A stretch of 20,550 nt of DNA from Psammoneis japonica (taxonomy: Eukaryota): the NCBI GenBank assembly GCA_008632985.1, contig QPGO01000099.1, positions 289,679 to 310,228 of the forward strand, written 5' to 3'. Below, piece by piece: positions 1-20,550 of this stretch. Both the position numbers and the translations under genes were made by a program. Every line of letters starts with the position of its first letter. The stretch's first letter is position 1. The notes under the pieces are model-generated. The model worked only from the letters and a program-made list of their open reading frames with translations, had not been told where the DNA came from and did no database searches.

Positions 1-4
1 TGCT

Positions 5-751
5 TTAGTCATCAATGTCAAGCCATCGTGGGCGAAGTTGACCATGCGGTTCTGAAGCTGCACCACAACTGCTTTGTAATGTGAAAGAGTATTGTGGCAG
101 TACCCCTTGTGTTTCCGAAATCAAAGTTGTGCAAGACAAACCGAGTGACTCTGGATGTAGCCAATCGTCGTCATCCTCCTCTTCATTCGACAGGGGGACA
201 TTATACAAGCATTCTTCGGAAGCTCTGGCAGCAATTTCATCAACCGCCGCCAACTGTTTGGCAATGGCTTTAGAATTCTTGGAAATTACCATGGAAGCTA
301 GCATTAACTCTGCCGGATCGTGAATACCTTGCTTTCGTTGGCTCTCTTGCTCATCCAACACAAATCGAATAGCTACCTTTCGTGTCTCTGAACCGCTGTA
401 GTGAATAAATCTCTCTAACCCACGTATACAGAAGCTGTTGTAGTCCAGTGTATTCTCTCGTGCGCTCTGTATAATGTCTCGGCATTCCTGGTGGAAGAAC
501 GCGTAATCTTGACGAGAATAGCACGTCCTGATGATATCTTCCGGCGTTTTCCTGTCGACAATGTGTGTCTCGTAGGGACCGTCCGCAAATCGAACAACCT
601 TGTACGAAGGACCGTCGGATAAGAAATCTATCTGTCTTGGAGGCATGCTTTGATAGAAATGGAAAGGCTTTGGGATAATGGCGAGTCGATTCTGCCGTTG
701 GGTGACAATTATGGTGTTGTGATGGTTAGTTGTGTGCTCGATGCTCGACAT
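5..751 (-). CDS. Diatom-type uncharacterised protein of the 'VxF...Y...RGLE...VLxEQxxQ...DP' family (start ATG at 751, or the shorter one at 646)
   Basis: Open frame contains VVRFADGP, CYSRQDY, CIRGLERF, VLDEQESQRKQGIHDP and AKQLAAVDE, the same motif order as the ORF at 2832-3479. The track start at 841 is GTG, so the first ATGs (751, 646) were used. Confidence 0.75.
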   Translation of the reverse strand: MSSIEHTTNHHNTIIVTQRQNRLAIIPKPFHFYQSMPPRQIDFLSDGPSYKVVRFADGPYETHIVDRKTPEDIIRTCYSRQDYAFFHQECRDIIQSARENTLDYNSFCIRGLERFIHYSGSETRKVAIRFVLDEQESQRKQGIHDPAELMLASMVISKNSKAIAKQLAAVDEIAARASEECLYNVPLSNEEEDDDDWLHPESLGLSCTTLISETQGVLPQYSFTLQSSCGAASEPHGQLRPRWLDIDD

Positions 752-925
752 AAGTACTCGTAAGCGTTTCCCGTTTCCCGGGTCTTTTGAAATTTTGCTG
801 TTCGCGGGCGTGTCCGTTGGAGACTCCGTTTTGCATACCACTTGTCCTCATACTCGTATGATATATTTTTCTGATTGCGGATGGTCGCGACTCCAAACAA
901 GACTGACAACGCGTTTTTTGTTCGC

Positions 926-941
926 GGTTAGGGTTAGGGTT
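926..941 (+). repeat. Short interstitial telomere-like (TTAGGG)n motif
   Basis: GGTTAGGGTTAGGGTT read directly, upstream of the minus-strand gene at 5-751. Confidence 0.6.
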
Positions 942-1489
942 GAGAGCGAAATGCACTCGCAATAGACTAACTCAACCATGCGGCATGAGGAATAGGAAAT
1001 CTTGCTCCACGAAGCGGAGGCCCTCGCATCATTGCAATCGATTGAAGTGTTTGTACAATTCGTGATAGAGTGCAGCGGTGCGTACGAAGGATGGGATTAG
1101 AGCTGGGGCTTATCGACTTGAAAGAGTGGGTTCTTGGATATGGAGACAGCAAAACGAAATAATTGCAAGAGCCATTATGTGTAGACCGTTAAAGTAGTAA
1201 GGGGATAGGCATTGTTAATGGTTTGAATGGCTTCCACTCTGCTACCAGCGGCGCCAGAAAGGCGGATTCAGCCTAGCCAGCATGGGTGCGAAATGCTCGG
1301 TCTCTACTCCTAGCTAGAGAGTAGATGTGACGCAACATTCAAACACGCAACACGCACTTCGACGCGCGCAGTGCAGAGCGATTGCCTATTCTATCATCGA
1401 CGGTCGATGATCGACGATGATTATTCTGACGTGACAGTCGTTAGCCCTGCAATCGAATACTCGTAAACGAGACTGATTCTGTTCGAATA

Positions 1490-2166
1490 ATGGCTGTTAT
1501 GTGGCGCTTGTTGCGTCTTTTTGGTCGCGGATCATTACTTCTTCTCGCAAGCCACTGCTGTGTTGCCCATGGGCTCGCTCCTCCCCAGATTTCTGTCAGG
1601 AAAGCTTCCTCCATGCTAGATGTAATGAAGCTTGCGGATTTACGTTACGATGAATGGATTTCAGGCAAGTTTGACACGAGCCGCGATGCGTTTCGGGCAG
1701 CGACCGCTGAACTCGTTGAGGAACGAAAAGCTGATGCTACGGTGTTTCTGGCTGAGCTGGGAAGGGTAACCGTGGGTGCTGCTGAACTCAGTGCATTGGA
1801 GCTACAAGGGGCCCTAGCATCAAAAAACTTGGCGCTCTATGTAACGGATGTCGTGACGGCTCAAGAGCATCGTCGCAAAGGCGTTGCTCGAGCCCTTATG
1901 GATGCCATGGAGAAAAATGCCAGTCAGCAAGGTGTGAAGTACTTGCTTTTGCACGTGGAGGATACAAACGTCGCGGCGCAGCGCTTTTACGAAAAGGCCG
2001 GTTACACAGTAGATATGCCATCTAAGCTGAAATTGCTGGACAACGACAAACTTGCTGAAAATTCAGGAACGCAGGGCAGGTGCTGTTGAACAAGAAAATG
2101 CAACCAGCAAAAGCTACAAAAGGTGGTCGAGCGGCTGGAGGTAGGGGCTTTCAAAAGACGTCGTGA
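1490..2166 (+). CDS. GNAT-family N-acetyltransferase with N-terminal signal/transit-like peptide; apparent 1-nt frameshift near 2075
   Basis: Contains YVTDVVTAQEHRRKGVARALM (acetyl-CoA binding R-x-x-G-x-A), LLLHVEDTNVAAQRFYEKAGY and a hydrophobic N-terminus. The frame stops at 2089, but adding one base at gcagggcagg gives GTQGQVLLNKKM...GGRGFQKTS* ending at 2166. Confidence 0.85.
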
Positions 2167-2831
2167 TATACAACGACAAGTTAGGGAGACTCGTTGAAAG
2201 CTTGAAAGAAAGGGTGCTATGTGGAACGACTTTTGCAGTTTCTAGCTACACTCGCTTGTGACAAACACGATGAATTGCTGAGCTTACTCTCTCAAGACGC
2301 AGTACTGTTTGCCAGGAGACGGTGGAAGCTGCCATTCAGTCTTAGATTCGACTGATGATGCACGCATACACGCATACCTCTAGAAAGAGGTCGGAGAAGA
2401 GCAAGATGGTCATTTAGCATCCGGCAAAGATTGGCTTGGCTGCTTCAACGCATGCAGCTAAACTGCAGAGCCACCAGTTTTAGTTTTTAGTTAGAATTTT
2501 TGACAAGTTGGTAATTGTCGATGGAATTTATTTCGTTTTGCGCCATTGGTCTTGACACGCCTTATCTTCAGTTGACACGCCGTGTTACCTGTAACAGAAG
2601 GCGTGATCGGAGATAGCAAGGGACCAAAAAAATGGTGGGAAGGCCGTTCCAGTCATGTTCCTTTGATGTGCATCAAAATTTCAACCTCAAAATATATATT
2701 TCGATCTGAATATAAAGAATAAATTTTGTATTAAATAACACGATTAAATATTACCTAATTACCGTATAAAATATATCACAAGAAGACTCAACGCACATTT
2801 TGAAATCGTGGAGAAGGGATCAAGAAACGAG

Positions 2832-3479
2832 ATGCGGCAGGTTGCCACATTTCTCACCGTGTTTGTCCTTTCGACCATGCTGAAGAAAAAATCGAGGCGT
2901 TCCATCACTCCAGAGACGCCAATGATGTCTCCCAAAAAGCAGATTGATCAAGACCGTGTGGTGACAAAAGGTAGAGTGCGTTTCAGTTCGGAGTCCACTC
3001 AGCTAAAGGTGATTCCGAGGAGAACCCCGTTGGAACAGAGAGAGTGTTGGTTCACCGCACATGACTACGCGTGTATCAAGAGACGCAATCAAGCTGCTAT
3101 TAACAGTGCCAAGAAAGGGATGTTCTTTGAGACTGAGTACGAGACCATTCGGGGTCTTGAAAAATTTATTTGGTTTGCCCCCAACGAGAAGCAACAACGA
3201 CGAAAAGCTACCATTGGACGGATTCTGAGTGAACAGAAACGACAGAAAGCGCTTGGTATTAACGACCCGAGTATGATTAAGGTGTTGTCGTCCATATACT
3301 CCAACTGGGAAAAAGATAAGGCTCTTGAGCTTGCAGCGGAAGACGAAACTGGCGTGTTAGAAACCAGAGAACCGAAGTTTCCGAGTTTCGAGAAGATGGT
3401 CGTCGTCGCAAATTGTGTCGAGAATGCGATTGAGGCATTCGCGAGTAACGCATTTGAACGTCGTACTATATGGTTGTAG
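2832..3479 (+). CDS. Second member of the diatom 'VxF...W...RGLE...LxEQxxQ...DP' family
   Basis: Contains RVRFS, CWFTAHDY, TIRGLEKF, ILSEQKRQKALGINDP and ALELAAEDE. First ATG is at 2832; the track start at 2808 is GTG. Confidence 0.8.
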   Translation: MRQVATFLTVFVLSTMLKKKSRRSITPETPMMSPKKQIDQDRVVTKGRVRFSSESTQLKVIPRRTPLEQRECWFTAHDYACIKRRNQAAINSAKKGMFFETEYETIRGLEKFIWFAPNEKQQRRKATIGRILSEQKRQKALGINDPSMIKVLSSIYSNWEKDKALELAAEDETGVLETREPKFPSFEKMVVVANCVENAIEAFASNAFERRTIWL

Positions 3480-3623
3480 ATACAATATGCGAGGCAAGAA
3501 ACGGCGAAGAGGCCACAGAAAATATTATTCATATGTGAAAAATGTAAACTGAGAAGAACGCTCTATACTACTTGAAGATTTTGTACAGTCAAGCAGACTC
3601 TCTCGAACCGCGTCTAGTACATA

Positions 3624-5762
3624 TTAGCTATGCTGAAACGCAACAGCTGCTGCTCTAAATGGTGCAGCTTGAAGCATTGTAGTTGGTCGATCCAGCCACT
3701 TAGATTCTTTGGATGCTTCCCAGACGACGCCAAAAACTTTGGTACTGAGGTTTGTCAATCCCCTTGCTTGCAGTGAGGATAAGGTAAAAAGAAAGTTATT
3801 CGAAACAAACTCCAAGACAGTTTGACACAACGCTTCGTCATTTTCCTTGACAATCGGAGCCCAGTAGCGAAAAATATTGACGAGGAGATTCTTGAGTCGA
3901 TACACTTGGCCTTCCGTTGCAAACTCCATGGCTTGGTCCAAGAAGTCAATTTGAGCCGCCTTGGCTGCTACGTCACTGCTAGCGTCAAGTATCGGAATAG
4001 ACACAGAGTCGAGGCATTCACGAATGTATTGGACCAGTCGTACCCTCAGTCGAGTCACACTACGACTATTTGGCCTTATACCAAACACCCAACGACAAAA
4101 TGAGGATATCGCCACTGTCTGGCTTGTCGAATATAAATTGTAGGCGCCCAATTCCAAAACTTTGACAACGGCGGCAACCAAAATCTTGTCGATGACTTGT
4201 TGAAGAGGTGATGCATCCTCCGATTCGTCCTTGTCGTTGTCTGAACTTTTCAACATTTCTAACCAGTCGAGTTGTGGGTGCTGTTTCTCGCCGAAATGCA
4301 AAGGATTCAAGTCCGAGCACATTTCAACGCGGACTAGCACACCCAACAGATCGGCAAAACTAAGAGACGCAAAGCACTGCTTGTATTCATCTGGATAGTG
4401 TTGTCGCCATTCCTCAAATACGCCAAAGAGACTTGACGTCGACGTGTAATCCTCGCTCAGTTCCTCCTTTGCGACATGAAGCGCCTCTAAAAGCGCAGTC
4501 CGTCGCTCTTCCTGGTCCTTTTCTTCATTCGAAGAGAAACCATTACTCGAGTAGTAGTCTTCCAGTGAGAAGCTCTCGTCCGTTTGTTGCTTTTCCCATT
4601 CTTGTCGACTCTGGCGTCGCTGTCGTGCGCGCTGTTCTCGTTGCAGCGCTTGTTGTGATTTGACATCTCTACCGAATTCATCGACTTGCGTCGCCACTTC
4701 TCGCGCTGGTATTTCTACTTGTTTTCCCAATACGCGGTCCAGTAACTGTGCCTCGGATAACGTCGCAATGACATCTGCCTGCCATTCTTGCAAGTGCTGC
4801 GGAGAAGAGATTTCGGTTTCGAGTTCCAACAAAGCTTGCTGCACCGGCTGTACTTTGGATTGCAGTTCTCGTAAGGCCCCTACCCACGACGCTAGTGTCA
4901 GACGGAGCTGCTGATAATACTCCAATGCCTTACCACTCTTGTCGAGTTCTTGTTCGTGTCGTTGTAATTCTGACCTTGTCTGCTGCAATTCCACCATGCG
5001 AACATCGTGAGCTTGTTTTATATCGTCCTGTTGGTTTCTCAAGTGACCCAGCGTCGATTCTACTTGTTGTTTCAATTGACTGAGCTTGTTCGAGGCGTCA
5101 TCGTTTGTGTTTGGTATGGCTTTGGAAGGTAGAATTCCTGCACGACGAGCAACTTGCGCCTCCCAATCTTGCGCTTCAGCATTACTATCGTCGGCAGCAA
5201 GAAAGGTTTGCTGCGGTTCCAATTCCATTTGCTCATGACTTTCATTCTGGTCAAAATTAATCGCCTCTTCTCCTGCCAGAATGACTGGCTCTGTCTCTTT
5301 AGCGGTGGAGAGAGGTATGTACGAAGGGAGAGACGTGCCTCCATCAGCTTCTACGTCTCGCGTCTCGGTACGTTGCTCCTCCGCTTCGTTCTTCTTTTCA
5401 ATCTTTTTCTTTTTGAAACGTTGCTGCGACTTGAGCTTCTCCATCGCTTCCTTTCCATACATGTCAGATTCGACGGCTTCGACGGTTTCCTCTTCAGCTT
5501 CAACAGTTATTTGTGCTCCGCCATAGCCCATACCGCCTCCTTTTCTCTTTTTCTTTTTCGTGGGTTCTTCTGTATCCAACTCGAACGAAATTTTGGAGGG
5601 AACTTTGGCTTTCTTTCGCCCTGATTTTTTGCTCTTTTGGACAGGACGCTTTACCACTACGATTTCATCTTCGGAAGACGACGCACCATCTTTATCATCA
5701 CCACTACTAGTTGACGTCGTCACGACTTTCTTCTTTTTCGGTCGTTTTGTGGGTCGAAACAT
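3624..5762 (-). CDS. GC-rich sequence DNA-binding factor-like (GCFC2/PAXBP1 family) spliceosome-associated protein, 712 aa
   Basis: Uninterrupted ORF from ATG 5762 with a Lys/acidic N-terminus including KISF, then WEAQV, a coiled coil, VDEFGRD and FEEWRQHYPDEYKQCFASLS. These resemble GCFC-domain proteins. Confidence 0.8.
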   Translation of the reverse strand: MFRPTKRPKKKKVVTTSTSSGDDKDGASSSEDEIVVVKRPVQKSKKSGRKKAKVPSKISFELDTEEPTKKKKRKGGGMGYGGAQITVEAEEETVEAVESDMYGKEAMEKLKSQQRFKKKKIEKKNEAEEQRTETRDVEADGGTSLPSYIPLSTAKETEPVILAGEEAINFDQNESHEQMELEPQQTFLAADDSNAEAQDWEAQVARRAGILPSKAIPNTNDDASNKLSQLKQQVESTLGHLRNQQDDIKQAHDVRMVELQQTRSELQRHEQELDKSGKALEYYQQLRLTLASWVGALRELQSKVQPVQQALLELETEISSPQHLQEWQADVIATLSEAQLLDRVLGKQVEIPAREVATQVDEFGRDVKSQQALQREQRARQRRQSRQEWEKQQTDESFSLEDYYSSNGFSSNEEKDQEERRTALLEALHVAKEELSEDYTSTSSLFGVFEEWRQHYPDEYKQCFASLSFADLLGVLVRVEMCSDLNPLHFGEKQHPQLDWLEMLKSSDNDKDESEDASPLQQVIDKILVAAVVKVLELGAYNLYSTSQTVAISSFCRWVFGIRPNSRSVTRLRVRLVQYIRECLDSVSIPILDASSDVAAKAAQIDFLDQAMEFATEGQVYRLKNLLVNIFRYWAPIVKENDEALCQTVLEFVSNNFLFTLSSLQARGLTNLSTKVFGVVWEASKESKWLDRPTTMLQAAPFRAAAVAFQHS

Positions 5763-7251
5763 GCTGATTCGGTACAAATTCTTCTTCACCTAAATAATCA
5801 CGAGAAGCATAGCTCAGTTTTTATTCACACAGACAACATGAAGCGAAGGATCATTGTGTATGTTGCGGGTTGCGGGCGGGTTTCAGGTTATGCGGTATCG
5901 TCTGCGGTGTGCTGCTAATTCTGGAGCTCGGACCTCGACAAAGAAGACGTCATCGGTCATCGGCGGCAGTTTTTTTTTTGCTACCGTAGAGCCTACGGCG
6001 GAATTGGTAATCCGATAGAGAGTACCAAGTTCCTACCCAAATTTTTACATACGATATAATGGTATTAATTCTACTTAGGTACACAAAAAAGATAGTGATT
6101 GAGAAATTTAGCAACGGTCACGACACAACAAATCTCCCATCTCTTCGACTTTTGCGCTCTCTCACAACTCGTCGTCTGCACGATGTGTTGTTGTTTGCCA
6201 AGCCTGAATGCCGTTATCGCCAAGGATGGCTCGCCCTTCCTCTGGATTGAGACCTTGCATTTGTTTGGCATTCCACAACTCATTTTGCTTGATGGCGTGT
6301 TGTCTCTAGGTGGCGTAGGTGTTGCCAGTTAAGTCCAGAGGTCGGGGCAAATCGAATGCGTCTCTCCGGCCTTGAGTCCATGTCACTCTCGTGTCTTTGA
6401 GCGTAGGAAGTTGCCTGTTCGCTTGACCCGTCAGGTCACGGCTGTTGAAACAGACAGCGGCGTTCGTCTGCGAAGCAGCAAAAGCTCGCCGAGCAGATCA
6501 TACTGTTGACGGAACACAGGTTTGGGGTTCTGTCGTATCAGTGGCATGATACGGTAAGTCTTCACTCGTAGGGAGTGTTGATTTAGAACGCGGTTGACTC
6601 GCAAGTTTTCTTGTTGTCTCCGTAGTACGTCCCCCCTTTTACTTTTTTTTTGTGATATTTTGTCACTCTGAAGATACGTAAAAGCTTGAGCGCTATCTTT
6701 TGATGACGCTCTTGAGGCAATGTTACCCTACGCTACCAATTTATATCAACTTTTGATATTGGTGTGTCTCAAATATTTGAAACACGCTTTGAACCTTTAC
6801 AGTAGATGTAGAAATACTTAAAGTACGACATAGCAATCTTTATTGGCGTGTTATTCATTCCGTGCGTACGTCAATGTGGACTGCGATGGCGGTCGTAGCG
6901 CTTGCAATGTCATCGCACACTTTAAACATGGGGTCCGCGACGGGGCATTCGTTACAGCGTGTTGTCGTTGATATGTGCTGGACTATTTCGGCGCTGATCG
7001 CCTGCATATTTTTATCGATTCGTCGTATTCACTTGTTGTTCGGGAGGAACAGAAGAATGCCGACTCTATGGATTCCGCTTGATCCTGTCAATGCACTTCT
7101 GTTTAAAATTCAAGCACAAAAACCAGAGGAAGCAGCGCAGAGCTACACATTACAAAGTCCATTAAAGATCAATTATGAAACAAATATACAGTAATATGAA
7201 GGAAAGTAGAAGCTGAACCGATCCTCCTTGAGCTGTCCATCCTTTTGTCGC

Positions 7252-10200
7252 TTAAACAAGGGGAGTCGTCTCAGTTTCTACTTCATTCTGCTGAGCATAT
7301 GCCACCTTGATATCTACAACGTTCATACAACCTGGCCATACCTCTCTCCACGCAGCTCTCATTTCGTGGCTTAGTTCAGGATGGTACCTTTCGAATTCCA
7401 CCGGGCTTCCCGCAAAACAAACGAGAACGGCATTGACCGAGCTACTAATGATTCCAAACAGGACACTGGTCAATACCAGCCCGACAAGCACGCCAATTCT
7501 ATCGTGTGCGATACAAATAAGAAATGAGCAAGGAAACAAACAAGGCAAACGAGCTTCCACTGGAAATTAGAACTTACGCAAACGCCTTTGCCGTCGCTCC
7601 CTGCAAAGCTTCTCTGTCGCCATTGATAAAGTTAAATCCTTCCAAATCTTCCACCAAAGACCCAAAGACCCCGGTGCAGCCTCCAATTACCAGACTAACC
7701 ATGAGTAAAATGTTTGGGATCAAGTCGTCCGCCACAATCTGCGCCCAGCCTCGCTTCTCAAATAGCTTCGTGGCATGGTGACCGGCATCAAGCAAGCTAT
7801 ATCCATACAATCCAACATAGGTAAAAGCAACGGATTAAAATATGCCGCCAAATTGTCCGCCACGGAAGCAATGCAATTTTGAATACACGACAGGCACTCG
7901 TGCAAGCACATGAGAGCCGTGTCGTCCACTTGGTTGGGACGGAAAAAGAGCGAAAACTGACGAATGAGACGGACGGGTCCGACAAGAAGGCTTCCAAAGC
8001 AAATGGATCCAAAGTACAAGGAAATTGAATACAAGACATTCCTTGTAGGAGTTCCGTCGCAAAATCGAGCATGTTCCTTAAACCACCAACAACCAATCGT
8101 CCCGGCCACCGAAACTTGGACAATATTCTGAACAGCAAACCGTGAAAATAGAGGATTAGATGAATCGAAACTCCGTACTGAGACACAACAATCGTAAACA
8201 ATATTCTTACCAATAGCACATGAAATGTCCAATAGTAAGAAATGGCAAGCATGGTGTACAGAAATATTGTAGCCTGTTTACCAATGACAAGATCGCCAGT
8301 TTCAATGGCGTCGTATACACCCACAACAACAAAGGTGTAGTAAATGGACCAACCCAACGCCAATCCTTGAAAGAAAAATGAAATTAACACGGTTCCAAAG
8401 TTTTCTCGGATAGCACTGAGCGCCGTCAGCAGATTCGCCGTGGCAAAGGGGATACGGTCCCAAACGACAAAGGTATAACCAACACTCAGTGCAAGGGCAA
8501 TGATTCCGGTAATGGGAACAATATTCTTTGGGCTCAGACCAATCCCAATGGTTCCCCAGCAAAAGCTCAAACCAATCGTCAGAATGAGCGCCACTTGAAC
8601 CACACGACGAGCAAACACTGCCATGAGCCACAAGACGAGCGACGACACGGCAATTGCAAAGGCCCCGCAGAGACAAGCCACATAAATGACATTTGCATAA
8701 GCCACCGTCACGTGTAAAGGATCATCGTCGTCATCAATTGAACCGTTCCTTCTGCTAAACGCGTCGGGACCATACATGGAACCCAAGTACACCATGCCAA
8801 TCAAGTGCAAGACAAACAAGACTGCAAACAAGACATCCCTGCAAGCCTTGGGCTGTTGCGTACCCTTGGATTCTTCCATGTAGATTTGTGCCGACTGCTG
8901 TCGCATATTCATCTTTCGGATGGATTGCGCCGATCGCTTGTGCCTACCGGACGATGATGATTCCTTGTTGGCTTGAATCAAGTCCTCAGGGACACCACCA
9001 CCCTCTTCCACAAAGTGCCCCAAGCTACGGGGTGTGTGAGGAGAAAACGTCACACCACGAGGATCCTCACCACCGCCGGGATACGATGACGGACCACTAT
9101 TACTTCCTTTGCGAAGGACCGATGCCGGAGGAGGAGTCATGGTTGCCGGAGACAAGCCCGGCGGAATGCCCATGGTTGTGTGAGGCGAAACCTGTTGGTA
9201 GGTTTGTACAGGAGACTGTGGGGGTGTCCTTCGGCTCCCACTTGTTGGTCGCTGCGGCGAAAAGGCATTGGCCAACGACATGATTTCGCCGCGAGGAGAA
9301 AACTGACTGCGAGGAGAATATTGCTGTCGAGGGGAGCTCTTTTCGGGAGTAATTCCGGCGGATGTTGGAGGCGGAACTGGCTGCTGCATGGAGCCGTACT
9401 GCTGCTGGATTTGTCCTGAAGCAGAAGAGGATCGTACCCGGTTGCTAGAGAACTGTTGGTTGCGGATACGACGAGAACCACCATTCTCCATAGGTGATGC
9501 GTCTACGGCCATCCCATCTTGATTTAAAATAGGAATGAGGGGATTGCCCGCAGGAGAAAGGGCGGGTGACTGACCATTCCAATATCCTACCATATCTGGA
9601 ACCGGTACGTTGGGATCACTCTGAACACGGTGATGCCCACGCATACGTTGGTGCGCTGGTGGACTCTGATACATTACCTGCTGCTGCTGTTGCTGCTGCT
9701 GTTGCTGCTGCTGTAACATATACTCCTGATACGTGGCTGGAGGATACAGTTGAGGAGGGATGGGGTAGCGCTGCTGCATCTGTTGCGCATAATATGGATC
9801 TTCCTGAGGATGTCCGTAGTAACGATAATCTTCACTGGTCGTTCGTCGATGGTGGTGATGGTGGCGCCGAGAATGATGACGTTCGCTTACTGCTTTCTTC
9901 CCAAACTCATTAGAAGCATACTGCTCTTCTTCCGTCAGCATGGGGCCCAAGTCTGAATTTGCTTTCTTACGCCTCCTCCTTCGCTCTGATTTACTAGACG
10001 TTCTGGTTGAGCCTCTGGAGTCGACCGCAGCAACTGGAGGCCGCGCCGTAGCAGAGGGCCCAATGGTTTCCAGAATGGATGGCTGCTGCAGAGCTGTTGA
10101 TGGTTCTACGAGTGGCTTGGTAGGCGGATCCTCGCCTGCTGTGTCTTCACGGTTGTCAGTTTGCGGTGTTGCGGTCGAAGTTGACGCCGGCGAGCCAATG

Positions 10201-10280
10201 TTGTTCTGCGTCATGGTTGTTGCCTCGGGGAAAAGTTGCCGAGGCCCGGCGTCTTCTACCGCCACTCCTCCAGCCATCAT
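7252..10280 (-). CDS. Choline transporter-like (CTL/SLC44/Pns1) membrane protein with long low-complexity N-terminus. Exons 10280-8211, 8127-7578 and 7498-7252; apparent 1-nt frameshift at ~7830
   Basis: Contains CRDVLFAVLF, VWDRIPFATANL, YYWTFHVLL|NIVQVSVAGTIGCWWF, FGSICFGSLLV, AFTYVGLYGYS, LFEKRGW, IVADDLI and SSSVNAVLVCFA. GT-AG introns at 8210-8128 (83 nt) and 7577-7499 (79 nt) join these in frame. Confidence 0.88.
9678..9713 (-). repeat. (CAG/CAA)12 polyglutamine tract in the CTL gene N-terminus
   Basis: ctgctgctgctgttgctgctgctgttgctgctgctg on the + strand encodes Q12 on the minus strand. Confidence 0.9.
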
Positions 10281-10720
10281 GTCTCAGTCATGTGGGGTGG
10301 TGATGGCTACTACTTCGCAGTTATCACCCCCACACGACGGGATTGCCGGGAAACAACTCCGGCACGTTTGTGAATTCTTCCGCTTCATGTCGCGTCCCGC
10401 ATGCATCGTACTTGGATCGCGAGCGGAGTTTTCCCGCCAAAAATACCGGCAGACAAAATGAAATTTTCATATCGAATTTTTATTTATTTAGGACGGAGAA
10501 ACTTGACGTCGTAGTTCTTAAGTGATCTGGCGTGCTTTCCACGTGTACTTAATAAAAGAAATTTTTCGACCGTTAGATCAATGAATGATGTATTCGGATA
10601 TTAATAGATCACTTATTGGACAAACTTCCGCAAATCATTTCGGACCCACACTCGCGATCTCACTCTTCGCAGACCGGAAAGCTCACCCACCACAAAACGA
10701 CATGGCATTGACACGCGTTA

Positions 10721-13700
10721 CCAGCGGCCCTTCCCGGGCGCAGCAGCTCTTTGCTGCACCTTCTTGATGGCTTGTCAAGGGTCATTGATGGATGAAAAAA
10801 TCAAACGGCACTCTTTGTCTCTCGCTCGTTCGTCAATTTCAAAACTGAAAAGCTTTGAGTTTGCCACAACATTTTCGGTTGTCAGCCTTGCACAACAATG
10901 GCCGACATTGTTGCTGTTGCTCTCACATGGCTCTTCCCACAAGAAGTGTCCTCCTTTGATGTGTGCCAGCATTTCAAGTGTTGGTCTTAGATTGTTTCTC
11001 TCTCGACGATTTTTTGGTTTCCAGCGGCCAAGCTGTGCAACAACGTGGCGGCTGTGCCGACCAAACTCATTTTTCCATTTTTTTGTGTGGTGTCAAGGGC
11101 ATGTTCATCCTGTCTCTGCAGACTTTTTCAAGCAAACAGAACATGGAATGCATTGACATGGTTGGGAAATCACATCTGAGTTTTGTCACACCACTGGGGG
11201 CACAAAGGCGTGTTTGCAATGTCAAAACACGCAGATGAGAGCAATCAACCACGAGTGCATCAACTTCTCCAACAAAGGTGCAGACAGACAGACAAAAAAA
11301 TGTCATTCCAGACAAGGTCAAAAAGCAACAATGTGCTGACAATGGCGGAACAAATCTGTGCCCAAATGACACCCCAGCCCACTTTCGGAAGTTGAGAGCT
11401 TTCACAGTGTTCCGCGACATGGAGAGTGTTGGTCAGAGCTCTTTTGCAGTGGATCAACCTTGTCTCTTGACCACTCTCCATTTCTGCTTCTGGCTTCATT
11501 GCAATCCATTGAAGCTTGGGTGGGTCCCTCTGCCATCACCTTCTTGGGCTCGACTCCATCCTGCCGTGTTGCCCTGGATTCAACAGCAACACCAGCAGCT
11601 TTGCATCAGGCAACTTTCAAGACTGCTGTGGAGCCAGATGATCCATCAACCACAGACTTGGGTGGACAATGATGCTGCAGCACATCTCATGAACCTTGTC
11701 AAAATCAATCCCAAGTCCAAGGCAGGGCATGCAGCCAACTCGTGGCCACAAAGCAGGTGCCGGTGCCCCACAACCTCCTTGATTTTGTCTGGCTGGAGGC
11801 TGGGATTGGGGTGCCTTTTTGCATGTCCTCTCTCAAGATCATGGTCAATGGTGGCACCAGTGGCCCACAGGAAGTTGGTCCACAGTCAAGCCCTTGACTG
11901 GCATCATGGAAATGTCGTTGCTCCAAGGGCCTGGTCAGAATGCAGGGGTCTGTCAAAAAAGACTTTGAAAAAAGACATTTGTGGCAGTGGCAATGCAAGC
12001 TTCTTGGGAGGTCTGGGCACACTGCATCAAAAGAAAAGAAAGATGAAGAGGAGGACCTTTTGACAGACAGCAAAGCCCATGTCAAACATGTGGGAGGCCC
12101 GCTGCACACGTGCAACAGCAAATCTTCCACCACAACAGTGTTGGAAGTCACCGTTTGACCTCTCACTGTTGTCAATGCTCCCCTGGACGTCAATGGATTG
12201 GTTGACAACATTTTGGAGTTGTTGTCTGAGAATCGCATTTTGGAGTTCTTGGCCATTGCACCCAAGCCAGCCAAAGAGGAAGAGGAGTGCAAGACAAACA
12301 GACCAAACAAAGAAGAAGCCAATGAAGCTGAAGGGGGAAATGCCTCAGAAAAGAAACCCTTGGGAGAATGATTGAACTCAACCTTTGACAAGGTTGGTGG
12401 CTTGGATGCCCAGCTGGACTCCATCATCCATTGTGTTCTTGCCAGTGGCGCCACCCCTGAAGCTGCCAAATGACTGGGCATCAACCATGTCCAAGGCATT
12501 CTTCTGAGTTCTGAGTGGGCCTCCTGGTTGTGGGGTGACCTTGTTGGCAAGAGAGTTGGCAACCTTGTCAGGTGCCCAAGAACAAATTGTCAACGGCCCT
12601 AAAATTCTTGATGAACTCATTCCGAAAAGCAAGTCCAAGCCCTCTTTGCTCCTGCAGAACAGAAATGCAAACAAGCTGGCAACATGTCTGCTTTTTTCAC
12701 ATTGTTGCTCTCAATGAAATGGACGCCATTGCCAGAAAGAGAGGCAGCGTGACAAGCAACATGGCTGGAGTGTGTGGCAGCATTGTCAACCAACTGTTGG
12801 CCATGACATGGATGGAGTCCAAGAGGCCAACAATGTCCTCATTGTTGGACTTGTGTGAATCAACCTGATCTGCTGGATCCAGCGTTGTTGCATCCTGGTT
12901 GACTGGAAGTGCATCTTTGGGCAGAATTGCCTGATGATGCTGGCAGAAAAGACATTCTTTGAGCTCATGCAAGGTCAACAAAGGAGGCAGGAGGAGTCAG
13001 CAAAGATGCCCAAGCATGTCTTGAAGACCTTGGCAAGAAGGGATTGCCTGTCATCACAGAGCACTGCACTGGAGCTGAACTTGCAGAGGCTTGGTGCGGA
13101 GTGCTGCAAGCTTTGCCTTGGCATGCACCACAGTGCAGCAGGATGATGATGGTGCCAATGGTGTTCTTGCAGTCAAAGACCTCAATGATGCCTTGAGAGA
13201 AGTTCGGCCAGTCCTTGGGAAGCAAGATGAAGTTTTGAAGGCAAGATGTCCTCATGGCACTGGCCTTTGCTCTTCTTCCATGAAGCGAGTCCTCTGTGAT
13301 CTTGATCAAATTTGTTGCACTGCCTTTGAGATCTTTCACTTTGGAGTTGGCAGAGTCAATGCCACCAGTTGGTGGTGGCACTGGAAGCAGGTGTGGAGCC
13401 ACTGCGCTTGCCACCCAGACTGCTGGCTGCCAAAGCTTCCTCTCGACTGGAGCATCAGAATTTGTTTGCTTTGCTACAGCACTGGACTTGCTGGTCGATG
13501 GGGGCTGGACAGGCTGCTGCTCTGGCAGAAAAGTTTGTGGAAGCCTGAGAAATGCCCGGGTCTCTTCCAGTTCTGAAGGACATTGACCAAGTTTGTGCGG
13601 GATCTGGACCCAATGGCTGCAGTGGCGCCATGATTTCCACTCTGCGGGCACTGCTGCAAACTCCACCTGGAACATCCACTGCAGCCAAGGCAGGCAGTCA

Positions 13701-13990
13701 GTCCAAGGTGACTGAAAAACACTTTCGAGTCATTGCTGCCACATCAATGTCCAATGCTGCCTGCTCTGTTTTGAATGAGTGCTTTGTCCAAACAGTTGCA
13801 GTTCCCCAGCCAGTTGGATCTGAATCAATGGCACAGCTGCTGCGGGATAGTTTCAGTGCAACTGAGAACATGTCCTCGACCCTGGACGAGGACAAAGTCA
13901 ATGCCATGGCAGATGCCATGAACAACTTGTTTGAGAATGGTGCAGGCGTCAAATTGGCCCTGCGCTTTGTCGAAAAGGCCATTGCCGTGG
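10721..13990. other. Hypermutated domain A: TpA almost absent, CpG depleted, TpG/CpA enriched
   Basis: Manual scan finds only 4 TA dinucleotides in ~3.3 kb (10988, 12600, 13475, 13848) and none in 10990-12599. Flanking DNA has TA on nearly every line. Confidence 0.92.
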
Positions 13991-14124
13991 TTACCATGGA
14001 ACAAAGTCACCTCGCGAATGACGCAGACTTGAAACGTTCACGATTGCACGCCCTGGAAGAAATGATGGAGGACTGCCTCAGCAACGAAGCTGTTGCAAAC
14101 GAAGTTTGCGATGCAACATTCTAG
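11419..14124 (+). pseudogene. Degenerate NSF/Sec18-like (vesicle-fusing) AAA+ ATPase gene, possibly with a bipartite plastid-targeting leader
   Basis: FDKVGGLDAQLDSIIHCVLAS..PEAAK*LGINHVQGILLS/GPPGCGVTLLARELA (12384-12561), IVNGPKILD, HIVALNEMDAIARKRGS (Walker B), SIVNQLLA/MDGV..NNVLIVGL, NQPDLLDPALLHPG*LEVH (second region of homology), EHCTGAELA/GLVRSAASFALA, a degenerate D2, and TAG at 14122-14124. Multiple TGA stops and frameshifts. The 5' start is tentative. Confidence 0.9.
12503..12516 (+). repeat. 7-bp tandem duplication (TCTGAGT x2) frameshifting the gene just before the Walker A motif
   Basis: cttctgagttctgagtgggcctcctggttgtggg; removing one copy restores GILLSGPPGCG. Confidence 0.85.
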
Positions 14125-14388
14125 TAAAACTGCTGTTGCTGCCACTGGTGACATAAATACTACTCCGCTATCCTGACACTGTATTTGACATGGTTGTAGC
14201 TAGAAGAGTTATGGAAGCTGCAATGAGGCCATTTCTCAGAAAGGAATGACACGGATTCATGGCAGCTCCAAAAAATATTGACTCGTCATGCTAAAATGGG
14301 CAGGTAGGGCAAAGGCGTCGAAGGCCTTGTATTCAAAATGGAATGGGCAGATTTGTAGCGCATGAATAAGTAGAAGAAACAGGATTAT

Positions 14389-15530
14389 TTACTCCTTGCC
14401 GGCTTTGGAGAGATCCACAGGAAGTAATCGGCGTTTGAATTCGGCCACCAATTCTTCGTGGGTTCGCTTTGGTTGACCAACATTCAAATAGTACTTGGCC
14501 AATTCATCAAACTTTCCGTTGAGAACCAATGTTCCCACTTCCATTGTTCCAATGCCGTCAAAGATGAGGGAATCGTTCGCAGCGTGCTTGTCCAAATTCT
14601 TCAAAAACAAGTCGGGAAGTTGATACCATGGTAGACCAGGCTCTTCGTGGTGTTCAATGTGGTATCCAGTATTGAAGTTGAGAGAGTTGGAAGGACAGTT
14701 GATGCAGCTCATGGCAGTCTTATAGTTGTTGCCGTAGTCCTCGGGATCAACGAAAATGTGTTCCTTGAAGTTTCCTTGCATCAAACCGAAACTGATAAAG
14801 ATCCACGGAAGAATCAAAGTGAACATGGCGGCGATTGGGCTGTTCATGTAGGCATAGGAAAGAATAGCAACAAAAGTGACCGAGCCTGTAAGAGATTGCA
14901 GTGCCAAGCCAGGCTTGTTCATTTGCATAAGTCGGAATGGCAATTCCAAGTTACCAAACGACCAGAAACGGAACATGTACTTGAAATGATTCCACTTGGA
15001 GGAGCGATCATAATCCATAGTGGAACTCATGTCGTGAGGAGCAACATTGTCAACTGCATGATGCATACCAATGTGGTGAGGGTAGTAGAGGCCAGGAGGA
15101 ATACCAAACATGACGCAAATACCAGCCTTGAAAACGTGGTCCAAGAAACGGTAGGTCGAGTTGAAAATGGAACAATGCGAAATGAAGTGCAATGCCAACA
15201 CGAAAGATCGTCCCCAGCACTTCATATGAATAGCTGTGTATGCAACTCCAAGAATGATTTGTTGGCTCACAGGTAGAAGATTGTTTTGTTCGATGTAGTA
15301 CAACATAACGGCAACTGGCAAACTGGTTGCAAGAATGTTCATGCCACGTAAAAGATTCCTAGGTTTCGGCGATCCTTGCGTCGAAGAAAGGTCTCCACAA
15401 CCCAATCTTCCAAGAACTTGGGAAAGGTGAATAGATGTTCCCGATGCTTTTGCTCATAATCAACGTAGTTGAGAGTCTTCTTGTTTAGAAGTTTCGCCTT
15501 GGTCGATGGTCGGACATCGGCAGCAACCAT
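14389..15530 (-). CDS. Membrane fatty-acid desaturase-like protein with three His boxes; apparent 1-nt frameshift at ~15344
   Basis: Contains HFISH, YYPHHIGMHH, GNFKEHIF and FNTGYHIEHH plus TM segments. The upstream ORF 15530-15339 (MVAADV...LGIFYV) joins MNILATSLP if one base is added at tacgtggcatgaac. Confidence 0.85.
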
Positions 15531-15874
15531 TTCTTGGTCGAAGGACTTTTCAGGAGCCTTGCAAATTAACTATAGCCTTCTTATTTACGATTTCTGTCGA
15601 AACGCCTCAAAAATACAGTGTAAATACGAACAGAGAATCAACAACGGAAGTGATCTCCACAAAGCCAACGCCCAATGCCAAGCAATGCAAGAGTCGCGAG
15701 CGAAGGTTGTCGTGAAAAAAAAATTGGGAAACAATAAATCGGTGTTCGCAGAAACTTGACTAGTTCGACTGATTGTTTTTGCCCAACTTCCCACGCGTTG
15801 CAACACGACAGACAAGCCGACAAACGACAATGGCGAAGAGCCGATGCGGCCCCGTTCTTGAAAACTGCCGGTCA

Positions 15875-15952
15875 GTGGCTAAAAGAATTTTGCATGCAAG
15901 TTGATAGCACTACAATTGAGTTCGTACTTCTATTAAAAAAACTTTTAGCCAC
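15875..15952. repeat. 11-bp perfect inverted repeat (GTGGCTAAAAG / CTTTTAGCCAC) at the border of hypermutated domain B
   Basis: Arms at 15875-15885 and 15942-15952. The match extends imperfectly inward (aatttt vs aaaaaa) and outward (CAGTGG.. vs CTGTGG..). Confidence 0.7.
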
Positions 15953-17599
15953 AGGAACAAATTGAAGAAGATGTGGACCCGGGCTGCTGCAGGAACATGT
16001 TTCTCTCCAAAATTCATCAAAGGCAAATTGGCCTTTGCAAAGTTCTGCTCATTCCTTCAAAAGGGGGCACCGGGTGAATTCCTTAGGAAAATGTGATTGC
16101 ACCCACTTGATGCATGCCATCAAGCCATTGTTGACAAAATTGCCAACAAAAATCTTGGCAGCATTTGGGGTGTCAGCCCAACCCCAGCACTTGGCCCTTT
16201 CGTTTGACAAGGGGTGACTTGATGCTGAGGCTGGCGGTGTTGTTGAAAACTGGAGCAAGGAGAAAGTGCCAAATTTGCATCCACCAGAAAGTCGTGAAGA
16301 CTTGCGTGGCAATGACTTCTTGAGTGTTGGTCTTGTCGCCCTCTCGGTCTCAAAGCCAACACAGAGATTGATGCTTTTGACAAGACACTCAATGTTGCAA
16401 ACAAACTTTGTGTTCTGAAGAAAAAGGAGAGTTGGCAGTGTGACAGCAAGGACAATGATGAGCTGACTTGCAGTGCTTCCACTTCTCAGGGTCTTTCCCA
16501 CTTGGACAGCTTGAGCTCACCTCCAAAATTCAGCTCATCAAAAAAACTCTCTCAGATGGAAATGGCGACAGTGTTCCCAGTTGGCTTTGCATTGACATTG
16601 ACAAGCGGCTCTCCTCAAACAGTTGTTGTCAGCTCAAAATGATGTTGTTGAACATGTTTGACATTTTCAAGCAACGTGTGGCATTGGTTGTTTCTGAATT
16701 TTTCTGAAATTTTTGATTTGTTGTCTTCTGTGTTGATGCTGAGTGTAAATTTGTGTTGTGCGAGCACCACTGTTGCTCATCCGATGTTGTGCCCAAGGAT
16801 TAAAAATGGCCAACAAAGTTGCAATGACTTTGGCGTGGACCAATCAAAAGTGCACTCACTTTGTGTGGACATGCCCAACTTCCCCAGATGGCCTGGAGGA
16901 AGTGTGCCACATCTGCATGGACTCACAGTGAGATTTCACATGACATTCACCTTCTTGCATCTGGATCAGACTTGTCATTGTTCTGCAGATGGAGTGGCAA
17001 CAAAATGGTTTGCATGGTTGTTTGAGTTGCATGCTGATCAACAGAAGCAACTGTCAACAATCAACCAACCACAACTCTGGAGCAGCACGATGATGGAGTG
17101 ATGATGGGGGCAGCACTGCCTGCAAACTCTTGCTTGTTTGCAAAGACAGGAATGGGAAGATGTCAGTGCAATTGTTCACTCAGCCAAATTTCAAGTGTTG
17201 TCTCTCTAAGAAGAAATGTCTTCTTGACATCCATTGAAGTGTTGCAGCAATGGGTGGCTTGCTCCATCCAAGCTGTCTTTAGATGCCATTGGGCACTGTG
17301 TGCTTGTGCTGGACAATGTCCCACAACAGCCATTGCCTGAGCAGAATTCATCCAAACTGCAAAGAAAAGCTGCCTTTGTCAAAGTGCACAACTCTCAAGA
17401 TCTGGAACAGCTTCATGACTTTTTGCATGAGGAGATCAACAAAATGTTTGTCTTGAGATGTTGCAACACAAGAGGCGCCAAAATCAACTGTCAACTTGCA
17501 GCTGTTCAGATCATGGAGTTGAGCAAGAATGGTGTCAGAGCTTGGAGTCAACAGAGCATTTAAAACTTCAGCTCTAGAAGAAGCTCAAATGAAGGCTTT

Positions 17600-18420
17600 G
17601 GACAGAGCATTGCCACAGACTTGCAGCGTGTCATTGGTGACGGAAATTGCCAGCAGCAGTGCACTGTCAGCAATTGTGGTTGTTCCTGTGAAGCCATTGG
17701 CTGCAGTGGGAGTGAGGGTTTGTTTGCCACTGCCGGCCTTCCTTTTGACAACAAAACCTCCATGCTGTTGTCATTGAGTGCACCGGTGAATGTGCTGCCA
17801 CGGCTGCCGGCTCCCAGCATCAGCAAGGAGTTGCCACCTGATGGCAAGTTGGGGATGTGCCGCGCCCGCCATGCCTGAAAGTTTGTCCAGTGATTTGACC
17901 AAGCTGGAGAGGAACAGGCTCAAACCACCACCCACATCAAGGCTGGAGGCATCAGGGATCTGGTTTGATGCCCCACTTCCCAGGCTGATTTGCAGTGTCA
18001 AGTTGTTGACCTGTGCCAATGTCCCCACTGTCCAACGTGCCAAAAAGCCCCACAAAGTTCAATGAACCAACACTCAAGTGTTGCCCATTGTGTTGACTTG
18101 CCCATTGGTGGTGGCATTGTCAATGTGCATCTCCCCCGCAAAGGACAGCTGCCCGCCAGATGCGCTGAGTTGCCCACAAAGACCTCGGCAGCAGAAAAAC
18201 TGTTGCCTGATCCAATCATCATGGTTGGTCTGGCAGTGTGCATGGTGTTGCTGGAGAATGGCACCGCATCACTGAGTGCCACTGTTCCACCAGAAATCTT
18301 CCAGTTGGCCCCATGGCACAATCACCATTGCTGTTGTCATTGCCCCAATGGACATCCGTCATTCTGCAGGCGGCAAAGGCAGAACTGAAAGCGGCAAAGC
18401 TGGTTGCAGCCTGTGGCCAT
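17600..18420 (-). pseudogene. Relic of a bacterial-type secreted protein with an autotransporter-associated beta-strand (PATR) repeat
   Basis: Minus-strand fragments across frameshifts: TDVHWGNDNSNGD..GANWKISGGTV, IGSGNSFSAAEVFVG, LGSGASNQIPDASSLDVGGG, GGNSLLMLGAGSRGSTFTGALND and KAGSGKQTLTPTAANGFTGTTTIADSALLL (17740-17651). The last fits the PATR pattern K.G.G.LTL...N.(Y/F)TG.TT(I/V)..G.L.L. Confidence 0.75.
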
Positions 18421-18825
18421 GCTTGGTGTCTCAGAAGTCATTTTTGTCATTTGTCAATTGCACTTTTCCAAGATCAAGCATGCCTGCTTTGAACAGGCCT
18501 TGACCTGTCATTGGGACAGTGGTGATGGTGAATGGGAAGGTGGCAAGAACCGCCAGAGTGTTGCAAACCAGCTGGCCCATCAGATGTCCTCAAGAATCAT
18601 GATGCCAAGAAGAAGAGGCCCCATCAAAGGTGCAGAAGCTGCCCACATGTGAGGGCAAAAGTGCTTGCAAACACAACTGCTTGCAATGATGTGGGTGTCT
18701 TTTCACCAAGTTTTCTTTGGACCAAAGATTTGCGTCAATGCTCCGTTGCACTTTGGGGCCACTCCTTTGCCCCAGCGGGGGTGCAAAGAGTTCCTTGCAC
18801 TCTTCAGGGCAATGAGGGCTGCACT

Positions 18826-19670
18826 TTAGAATTTGCACTGCTTGATGTTCCAACAGCCGATTGTGAGCATCACAGCAATGAAGAGAGTGCAGCTCTGTGC
18901 TGGCTGCCATGGATCAAATTGAGCATGTTGGGGTGGCTGCTGATGTCTTGGCCAAGCCCCATTGTGCTGGACACTGAGCCGTCAAGGGCATGGGTGTTTT
19001 TGCCAATCATGGTGCAGTGCATCATCCTGCCCAACTCTCCTGGTCATGGCAGAGTCATGCACAGTGGCACCACCATCCCATGGCAAATGGCCGCTGCGCC
19101 AATGCAAATGCCAAAGGGCTGCCAGCCTTCATTGAATTCAGGCAGCTTGGGCTGAGCCTTCATTGAATCCAGGCAGCTTGGGCTGAGAGTTTGCTTCGCC
19201 ATCAATGGGGGCAAGAACCCCATCAACTCTTGCACCTGCACCGCTTGATTGATGAGGAGCATCAAATCAGGGCTGTTGAAGGTCATGGCAGAGATGTTGC
19301 CCTGTGACCAAAGGCTGGCCATTCCCAGTTTCTGCTCACTGCTGTTGTAAATCCAAAGGCTGCAATTCTGAAACAAGAGGGCAAGCCACTTGCCATCATT
19401 GGAGGAGCCGATGAAGCATGGCGGCACTTCACCTTTGGGTGAGAATTCGTGCAGCTCATGCAGCATTTTGGCATCCAGCACAAAGACCTTGGTGCATCCC
19501 TGCAAAGGCCAAGAGTGGTGGCCTTCTGAGCGCTGTTGGCAATTTTCTCATGTTTGCTCTGGGTGCAGTTTCCTTCATCATCTGTGTTGAAGATTGCCAC
19601 ATTGCTGCTGGTGCAAATGGCAACCTGCCACCATGCATTGCTGGTGTCTGTCTGACAGCTCTGCCCAATC
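18826..19670 (-). pseudogene. Relic of the C-terminal part of a bacterial (Planctomycete-like) ABC-2 transporter permease with a beta-propeller-like extracytoplasmic region
   Basis: Fragments QVAICTSSNVAIFNTDDEGNC, LAFAG, KVFVLDAKMLHELHEFSPKGEVPPCFIGSSNDGKWLALLFQNCSLWIY, SQGNISAMTF, VVPLCMTLP*PGELG and DPWQPAQSCTLFIAVMLTIGCWNIKQCKF* (TAA at 18828-18826). The family assignment is from recalled resemblance, not a search. Confidence 0.55.
19124..19185. repeat. 31-bp tandem duplication (1 mismatch) inside the permease relic
   Basis: agccttcattgaattcaggcagcttgggctg (19124-19154) followed by agccttcattgaatccaggcagcttgggctg (19155-19185). Confidence 0.9.
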
Positions 19671-20550
19671 ATTCAAAATGATGCCCTTGTTGTCAACATC
19701 TTGCGTTGTTGCTGCATGCAATTCGCACAGAAAATTGCAAAAACCCAGCAACAGCAATGCCCCAAAATCAACCACAAACTGCATCCAGGGTCAATGTGGG
19801 TGAACATCCCTGCTCATTGCTCACCACAAGATGCGCATGGTGTGTTTTGTTGCATGAAAACTGGCCAACAGCATTGCCGGCAGCACACCACTGTCAGCAT
19901 TGAATGCCGCATGAAAAGCATGGGGACAACTCTTCTGTCGCATTTGTCTGTCTGTTGCCCAGCTGCACTGCATCTGTCAACAGTTTTTTCTGATGCACAT
20001 TTCTTCCACCTGTGGCATCCCCGCTGAAGCTTGTGCTCAGCCACCTTCACTGGCAGCATCCCCATTTCTCCCTTTCTCGTGTTCACAACAAGTTCTTCAA
20101 AGCCGCCAACCTGCGCACCTGCAGAGATTGCAACCACAGCAAGTGCACCTGCCTTTCTCTCCATGTCATCTTGAGGGTCACCTTCATGCCAAGCACTCTG
20201 TGCCTTGGACCACCCTCAATGCCAACATTGTTGCTTCCGCCCTCGGCAGACCGGCTCCAGTCCCAGGCGGGACTCCGTGTGACATTTGGCCCACAGAATT
20301 CTGTGCATGTGAACTCCGCAGTAAATTTGTCAAGCAATGAAAATGCAAATGATCGTCAACAGAAAAAGAGGCAATTTTACGAACCTGTCTCCTCCTCCAC
20401 ACTTGCAGCACATCACAAACAGCTTGCCCAGGTGTGTTCTGCAGACATCAAAGAATGCATCCAGCACACTCTGCTTGCTCTTCCTCCTCTCCCAGATGAC
20501 CCCATCTTCTGTCCTCTGAAGCCCCCTTTTGCTCTTGGCTCTTGGCAGAT

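Follow-up and report, generated by a model that had tools for sequence, protein, structure and literature searches.

Two TA-poor domains in a diatom genome window

The window analysed here is a stretch of 20,550 nucleotides from the diatom Psammoneis japonica (GenBank assembly GCA_008632985.1; contig QPGO01000099.1, positions 289,679 to 310,228 of the forward strand), in which two domains have lost nearly all of their TA dinucleotides. Domain 1 (positions 10615–14121) carries an NSF-like ("vesicle-fusing ATPase") AAA+ pseudogene on the plus strand (11101–14127), recognised by a Pfam AAA match, tblastn and frameshift-aware alignment, and domain 2 extends from 15947 to the window end at 20550. 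A choline-transporter-like gene, divergent from the pseudogene, lies to the left of domain 1, and an intact fatty-acid desaturase gene is located between the two domains; both genes have a normal composition.

Observed/expected dinucleotide ratios (O/E) were determined on 10721–13990 for domain 1 and on 15953–20550 for domain 2. The recount reproduced exactly the TA counts (4 and 11, respectively), the scarcity of CG, and the excess of TG and CA that had been noticed in an earlier, sequence-only reading of this DNA. The O/E of TA is 0.02 in domain 1 and 0.04 in domain 2, and that of CG is 0.27 (n = 56) and 0.23 (n = 66), while TG reaches 1.72 (n = 360) and 1.86 (n = 538), and CA 1.67 (n = 333) and 1.76 (n = 503). 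The corresponding values are 0.63 for TA (n = 462) and 1.06 for CG (n = 642) in the flank 1–10720, and 0.51 (n = 76) and 0.88 (n = 86) in the flank 13991–15952 between the domains. By our own arithmetic from the flank frequencies (0.0424 TA and 0.0574 CG per base), ~139 and ~195 TA, and 188 and 264 CG, are expected in domains 1 and 2, respectively, and the CG found amounts to about a quarter of that. In domain 1, TG and CA together gain 227 against a combined TA and CG loss of 266; in domain 2, the gain is 386 and the loss 382. The total of pyrimidine–purine steps is thus conserved, as expected if only transitions within such steps occurred. All eight TA-containing trinucleotides are down to 0.00–0.11 of the flank level, and CG to 0.18–0.24 of that level beside A or T and to 0.36–0.47 beside G or C. 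The 17 residual TAs of the two domains comprise nine with a 5′ T, seven with a 3′ A, one with a 5′ A, and none with a 3′ T; the survivors favor TTA and TAA and avoid ATA and TAT, although the latter two are among the commonest TA contexts in the flanks.

The borders of domain 1 are sharp. Its 3507 nt contain six TAs (at 10719, 10988, 12600, 13475, 13848, and 13992), and the next two (14122 and 14125) make up the pseudogene's pair of stop codons, at which the domain ends. The intergenic segment on its left (10281–10614) has 20 TAs, and on the right side TA is dense from 14154 onward. The CG-poor core of domain 1 is located at ~11060–13940, with 37 CG in 2840 nt (~0.013 versus 0.057 CG per base in the flanks). 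On the 5′ side, the TA-free zone reaches ~450 nt past this core: the segment 10615–11100, probably the promoter and 5′ untranslated region of the pseudogene, has only two TAs (Poisson P, ~3e-7, own arithmetic) and a normal number of CG (24). At the 3′ end, the last 181 nt of the pseudogene (13941–14121) also have a normal number of CG (13), with one TA versus ~5 expected, a weakly significant difference. Domain 2 has 11 TAs and a CG-poor core at 15923–20237 (59 CG in 4315 nt), which is followed by a TA-poor patch of normal CG content (20238–20380; 8 CG and 2 TAs). This patch overlaps a very high-copy repeat (bin depth, 22514), whose other copies differ in sequence there, and loose contig ends lie at 20256, 20303, and 20413.

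The domain borders can be placed within about 100–140 nt, and the adjacent intergenic DNA and the desaturase gene are TA-normal. These compositions confirm the view of the sequence-only reading that bounded domains lie among normal genes; two sharp domains stand, with exact limits that are shifted from those given earlier to 10615–14121 and 15947 to the window end. Because the intergenic DNA adjoining the domains is TA-rich, a genome-wide mutation bias is excluded. The hypermutation had also been described as dual, which holds for the losses of both TA and CG; two processes with different footprints give the simpler account.

The NSF-like pseudogene and its substitution spectrum

In a Pfam scan of 130 open frames of at least 45 amino acids in the domains, the frame 12508–12714 matched the AAA family with an E-value of 1.3e-6, passing the curated cut-off. 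The other matches (DUF4131, DUF3649, RBM39linker, PATR, and OFCC1) were weak, under the cut-off, and were rejected. A phmmer search of the full library with the C-terminal frame 13549–14121 gave 39 proteins at E ≤ 0.001, including full-length proteins of 870 and 966 amino acids that are named in their sources as "vesicle-fusing ATPase" or "SpoVK/Ycf46/Vps4 family AAA+". Residues 100–870 of the 870-residue protein (P0088) align to 11656–14121 on the plus strand in tblastn and frameshift-aware alignment, with 14 frameshifts, eight in-frame stops, and 384 identical codons out of 756. The start of the pseudogene is uncertain, the candidates being ATG 11101 and, alternatively, ATG 10898; the alignment is confident only from 11656, and the presequence of P0088 matches 11179–11313 weakly (tblastn E-value, 0.66). 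The aligned part has no intron-sized gap, and no poly(A) tract was found 3′ of the stop codon.

Among the 256 columns that are invariant in six homologues, the pseudogene keeps 185 and changes 71. Single TA/CG transition steps account for 34 of these changes (CG to CA, 15; CG to TG, 7; TA to TG, 8; TA to CA, 3; and one double). Both invariant Tyr are now Cys, and of the 29 invariant Arg, nine are kept, 14 have turned into Gln (6), Cys (3), stop (3), His (1), or Trp (1), and the remaining six are Lys (3), Gly, Thr, or Met. These alignments identify domain 1 as the dead version of a housekeeping-type diatom gene, with a few hundred bases upstream, and not as a transposon. As a separate observation, the best-scoring relative of the C-terminal part of the pseudogene, a "hypothetical protein" of 461 amino acids (P0078), holds two tandem copies of a D2-domain fragment, and is itself possibly a copy, in another organism, that has been rearranged or is decaying.

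For comparison, 63 loci from metagenomes that code for relatives homologous to the AAA protein were fetched. The concern of the sequence-only reading that the unmutated source sequences might be equally TA-free is not borne out: the TA O/E of all 63 loci is normal (0.28–1.25), showing that the unmutated AAA family is not TA-free. In tblastn searches of these loci with four neighbouring proteins of the window, no synteny was found. The best blastn match of the pseudogene to the 63 loci has ~66% identity over at least 400 nt, and a few matches shorter than 100 nt reach 78–83%; in view of this lack of a close DNA relative among the loci, the substitution spectrum was read against distant homologues by aligned codon. 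Thirty-five loci had at least 550 aligned codons and a G+C content of 0.38–0.55, and seven of them, being more than 95% identical to another, were dropped, leaving 28.

At sites where the homologue has TA (2567 pairs), the pseudogene has TA in 0.6%, TG in 30.2%, CA in 20.6%, and other dinucleotides in 47.4%, as compared with 24.6, 15.6, 9.7, and 47.9%, respectively, when intact genes are taken as the target (70688 pairs). Likewise, in the 2691 pairs for which the homologue reads CG, the pseudogene shows CG in 5.3%, TG in 24.0%, and CA in 18.6%, versus 24.7, 14.8, and 8.9% in the intact genes. None of these six TA- and CG-site values of the pseudogene falls within the range spanned by the 28 intact genes, and secondary deviations (e.g., GT to GC and GA to AA) are neighbour effects of the same TA and CG changes. 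According to the aligned codons, the missing TA and CG of the pseudogene have been converted to TG and CA only. The changes at homologue-TA sites are TpA to TpG or CpA only, i.e., A:T to G:C transitions confined to TpA; AA and AT are not depleted in the domains. The comparison with intact homologues proposed in the sequence-only reading thus yields an excess of TA to TG/CA over the 28 genes. Together with the replacements of Tyr by Cys, and of Arg by Cys, His, Gln, Trp, or stop, it bears out the proposal that the TA loss is a mutational, domain-confined change on both strands. In domain 1, the loss is mutational in origin, has a single direction, and is restricted, with that of CG, to these two dinucleotides.

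The change in domain 1 is also symmetric between the strands. The gains of TG and CA in the pseudogene are ~+15 and ~+11 points at homologue-TA sites, and ~+9 and ~+10 points at homologue-CG sites. In a runs test of the order of TG and CA, z is +0.9 and +1.4 in the domains versus −4.1 in the flanks, the latter as expected from coding-strand composition; the absence of strand-coordinated runs in the domains argues for site-by-site events on duplex DNA. Outside the pyrimidine–purine steps, dinucleotide identity is 0.315 for the pseudogene versus 0.368–0.425 among the intact genes, and much of this gap is a neighbour effect of the TA and CG changes. The background divergence of the pseudogene is modest, with 37 changes of other kinds at the 256 invariant columns. 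TA loss in domain 1 ran far faster than the background, by an estimated factor of ~40 or more per base relative to change at the other aligned sites.

Domain 2, neighbouring genes, and read support

Domain 2 gave no Pfam match above the curated cut-off, either by frame or in six read-through frames with stops as X. No viral relative was found in a viral-contig scan, and tblastx against the DNA flanking the AAA homologues in the 63 loci also gave nothing. Two overlapping open frames on the minus strand (19047–19672) resemble, in language-model features, the N-terminal β-propellers of the WDR35/IFT140/VPS11 type, with scores of 0.93–0.95 and a recognition below the threshold of the tool, so that this resemblance is a lead only; the frames could be what is left of a gene on the minus strand. 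For the frame 19047–19547 (minus strand), a word-based search among longer proteins detected no homologue. If a minus-strand gene lies there, the patch at 20238–20380 would be its upstream region, mirroring the 5′ zone of domain 1. Parts of domain 2 attract extra contigs at a likeness of at least 80%, with bin depths of 100–270 versus ~55. A 31-nt tandem duplication (two copies, 97% identical) is located at 19124–19185. A coding scan in a purine/pyrimidine alphabet, which is blind to the transitions described here, mis-called the strand of the intact desaturase gene and was dropped.

The desaturase gene between the domains (14392–15453, minus strand; Pfam PF00487, E-value of 1.2e-22) has 77 homologues with a best identity of 80%, to unnamed proteins; the closest named ones are from Nitzschia sp. 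Nitz4 (67%) and Amphora coffeaeformis, in line with a diatom source. A 1297-nt contig of the data set X2, which is recorded as "DNA?", sits on 14390–15669 over this gene. The choline-transporter-like gene (7797–10280, minus strand; Pfam PF04515) is covered by a spliced X2 contig, which skips 7499–7577 (79 nt) and 8128–8210 (83 nt), both with CT..AC ends corresponding to GT..AG on the minus strand. The skipped segments look like two short introns of this gene, and X2 therefore behaves like RNA. X2 covers the neighbouring genes and is absent over 10556–13890 and 15892–19226, a blank that is no evidence of silence. No Rfam family was found anywhere in the window.

Read support was obtained from X1, a public run of the same sample as the assembly with no library type on record, using contigs made from exact 31-letter words. 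These contigs reproduce both domains at the word depth of the flanks (~55), and bridge the borders at 9719–10803 and 13000–15696. Inside the pseudogene, contigs of about half that depth carry a 34-nt insertion at 11259–11263 (depth, 35) and a 112-nt deletion at 12109–12222 (depth, 31), which are probably haplotype differences; both haplotypes would then carry the hypermutated domain. In a gene of normal composition at 3790–4871, same-sample contigs differ at 20–22 letters per 1.1–1.3 kb, consistent with ~2% allelic divergence. A high-copy repeat at ~6113–6900, intergenic between two minus-strand genes, has X1 bin depths of 6378 and 2742 with many rearranged joints. Its TA and CG are normal, indicating that repetition by itself does not make DNA TA-free in this genome.

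Explanations considered and known systems

We consider it likely that two units in this window were hit by a local, DNA-level hypermutation of TpA to TpG or CpA that ran to near completion, with a slower CpG decay on top. Unit 1 would be the dead host copy of the NSF-like AAA ATPase gene with ~400–500 nt upstream, and unit 2 the 4.6-kb stretch of domain 2. The TpA step would convert A:T to G:C at TpA on either strand almost exhaustively, and would be enzymatic, the likeliest agent being an ADAT2/TadA-like DNA adenine deaminase with a preference for a 5′ T, whose product, inosine, is read as G. Overlaid in the cores of both units, the slower decay of CpG to TpG or CpA may be due to deamination of 5-methylcytosine (5mC) in a methylated, silenced domain. 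CpG loss follows 5mC deamination, and diatoms methylate CG in repeats via DNMT5. Targeting may track silenced chromatin or the transcription unit rather than sequence composition or repeats. Since TA loss saturates fast and CpG decay is slow, TA-free margins with normal CG are expected where targeting spreads or is recent. By analogy, we infer that the process is of one kind with the TpA-only local hypermutation described in mutation-accumulation lines of the alga Bigelowiella natans (Mettrop et al. 2026, bioRxiv 10.64898/2026.01.13.699255).

Several points weigh against this explanation. The 3′ decoupling of the TA and CG footprints in domain 1 is uncertain, and the context bias of the 17 residual TAs is explained by none of the accounts considered here. 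At the invariant columns, 37 of the 71 changes lie outside the TA/CG class and, together with the 14 frameshifts, mark the copy as old, so that a slow process and bursts are indistinguishable. Domain 2 has no homologue, and its mutational origin is accordingly read from its composition. The read support from X1 is real but comes from the same sample, and hence is not independent. For this diatom, "silenced" and "enzymatic" are both inferred. Moreover, the B. natans preprint reports integrated viruses as targets, while the unit hit in domain 1 is a gene of host type.

For the step of targeting alone, with the chemistry unchanged, a homology-triggered mechanism similar to fungal repeat-induced point mutation (RIP) constitutes an unlikely but not negligible competitor, in which duplicated copies, such as homeologues or dispersed duplicates, would be recognised by pairing, perhaps with the help of a DNMT4/RID-like enzyme, and then mutated at TpA. 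A working copy elsewhere is plausible given the widespread AAA gene family (63 loci), and the extra contigs drawn by parts of domain 2 point in the same direction, as does the grouping of diatom DNMT4, a protein of no known function according to Hoguin et al. (2023, PMC9998398), with fungal RID. Against it, both domains are at single-copy depth, no second copy of either was found within the window (the only duplication being the 31-nt tandem pair), the high-copy repeat at ~6113–6900 is TA- and CG-normal, and the intact desaturase gene sits between the domains; the hypermutated region of nucleocytoplasmic large DNA virus (NCLDV) origin in B. natans is likewise single copy in the preprint's account. 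The chemistry itself could instead act on the thymine side, an idea to which we give a low probability: in silenced DNA, the T of TpA would undergo oxidation of the TET/JBP type, and the resulting 5-hydroxymethyl- or 5-formyluracil would mispair with G and yield T to C on either strand. TpA is palindromic and the outcome is strand-symmetric, so that A to G and T to C on the opposite strand are indistinguishable in these data. Hydroxylation of thymine with a TpA preference is reported for both dinoflagellates and kinetoplastids, and 5-formyluracil induces T to C mutations. On the other side, the B. natans preprint, the only study of the signature, favors an ADAT2-like deaminase, itself a proposal. 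Pol-eta-type WA to WG mutagenesis, which the sequence-only reading had offered as a candidate, does not fit: it would deplete A following A as well as A following T, but AA is not depleted, its O/E being 1.32–1.33 in the domains versus 1.19–1.23 in the flanks.

An edited retrocopy, produced by A-to-I hyperediting of an RNA followed by reverse transcription and insertion, would suit the footprint of domain 1, which runs from a few hundred nt before the ATG through the stop codon, and the pseudogene without an intron-sized gap. However, editing of one strand predicts TA to TG only, whereas TG and CA are both gained at homologue-TA sites and are interleaved; a poly(A) tract is absent after the stop codon, and the footprint includes probable promoter DNA. 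This explanation was already disfavored, and we regard it as extremely improbable. Nearly as improbable is an artefact that arose at modified bases during sequencing, base calling, or assembly, or a native composition of TA-free foreign DNA kept by selection. The reads come from the assembly's own sample, and domain 2 has no homologue against which a mutational origin could be judged. Nevertheless, the exact-word contigs at a depth of ~55 reproduce the domains and bridge their borders, and contigs of haplotype depth (31–35) carry indel variants inside domain 1. Neither does a native composition agree with domain 1 being a broken diatom gene, in which TG and CA are placed where the homologues have TA or CG, nor with the homologue loci, none of whose TA O/E values falls below 0.28.

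Returning to local TpA hypermutation, a broader version of it is conceivable, although we give it less than an even chance. Diatoms and chlorarachniophytes may share a chromatin- or RNA-guided, TpA-erasing DNA editing of whole silenced gene units with their promoter-proximal DNA, in host genes and invaders alike. With the same reserve, such editing might be ancestral to the stramenopile–alveolate–rhizarian (SAR) group and turn epigenetic silencing into irreversible genetic inactivation; since margins without TA but with intact CG exist, its footprint and CG methylation would be separable. If TpA hypermutation occurs in both a diatom and a chlorarachniophyte, it is no curiosity of one alga, and would represent a mutator or defence pathway that is widespread among eukaryotes. 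As diatoms can be handled genetically and methylation mutants of them exist, both the enzyme and the signal for targeting would then become testable; in Phaeodactylum, according to Hoguin et al. (2023, PMC9998398), DNA methylation is removed by loss of DNMT5a. Such domains also matter in practice: Tyr codons and TAA/TAG stops disappear from them, long spurious open frames arise that can mislead gene callers, and estimates of neutral mutation spectra are biased.

Among known systems, fungal RIP resembles the present case in its local, near-saturating transitions at one dinucleotide, which wreck genes and possibly leak into flanks. It depends on repeats and a sexual stage. As the sequence-only reading had stated, RIP runs the opposite way: it turns CpA into TpA and thus creates TA, whereas here TA is destroyed (O/E of 0.02–0.04) and CA is enriched. 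The RIP-like genome defence suggested in the sequence-only reading is not established, and domain 1 is a host-type gene rather than a transposon. The 5mC-driven decay of CpG likewise changes CG to TG and CA on both strands in the domain cores, but it accounts for the CG part only, and methylation is assumed here. In A-to-I editing by ADAR/ADAT enzymes, which prefer a 5′ U, the A after T/U is targeted and its product read as G, as in the present domains; however, the substrate of these enzymes is RNA, whereas the change in the domains has become fixed on both strands of the DNA.

The closest counterpart is found in B. natans, for which the preprint (bioRxiv 10.64898/2026.01.13.699255) reports that 231 of 302 nuclear point mutations fell in two regions, one being an integrated giant virus (~186 kb) and the other a virophage (~25 kb), and that 230 of these 231 were A to G or T to C, all on TpA. 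The rate was ~6e-7 per site per generation, ~1000 times the baseline, in only some of the lines. In addition, 124 clusters in that genome are depleted in TpA and enriched in CpA and TpG, and an ADAT2-like DNA adenine deaminase was put forward by the authors as a proposal. The signature, which the sequence-only reading had taken to be undescribed, has therefore been measured in B. natans; our literature searches found only this preprint describing it, and no report of it in diatoms. The terms "diatom", "Phaeodactylum", "stramenopile", and "CpG" are absent from the main text of the preprint. By this analogy, the Psammoneis domains may be regarded as the first indication of the process in diatoms that the literature searches could find.

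The two cases differ in several respects: B. natans is a rhizarian and Psammoneis a stramenopile diatom; the loss described in the preprint is ongoing and partial (Rho of 0.45 in the NCLDV region), whereas the TA loss is saturated here; the rate was measured there, whereas the end state is seen here; and TpA loss coincides here with a decay of CpG, a dinucleotide that the preprint's main text does not name. They are alike in the restriction of A to G and T to C changes to TpA, in the bounded regions within an otherwise normal nuclear genome, in the long-term depletion of TpA with gain of CpA and TpG, and in the many degraded, unannotatable TpA-depleted sequences. To the picture published for B. 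natans, the Psammoneis domains would add an end state of saturation, a target that is a host gene and has borders on the scale of a gene unit, and a co-located CpG decay with a different footprint.

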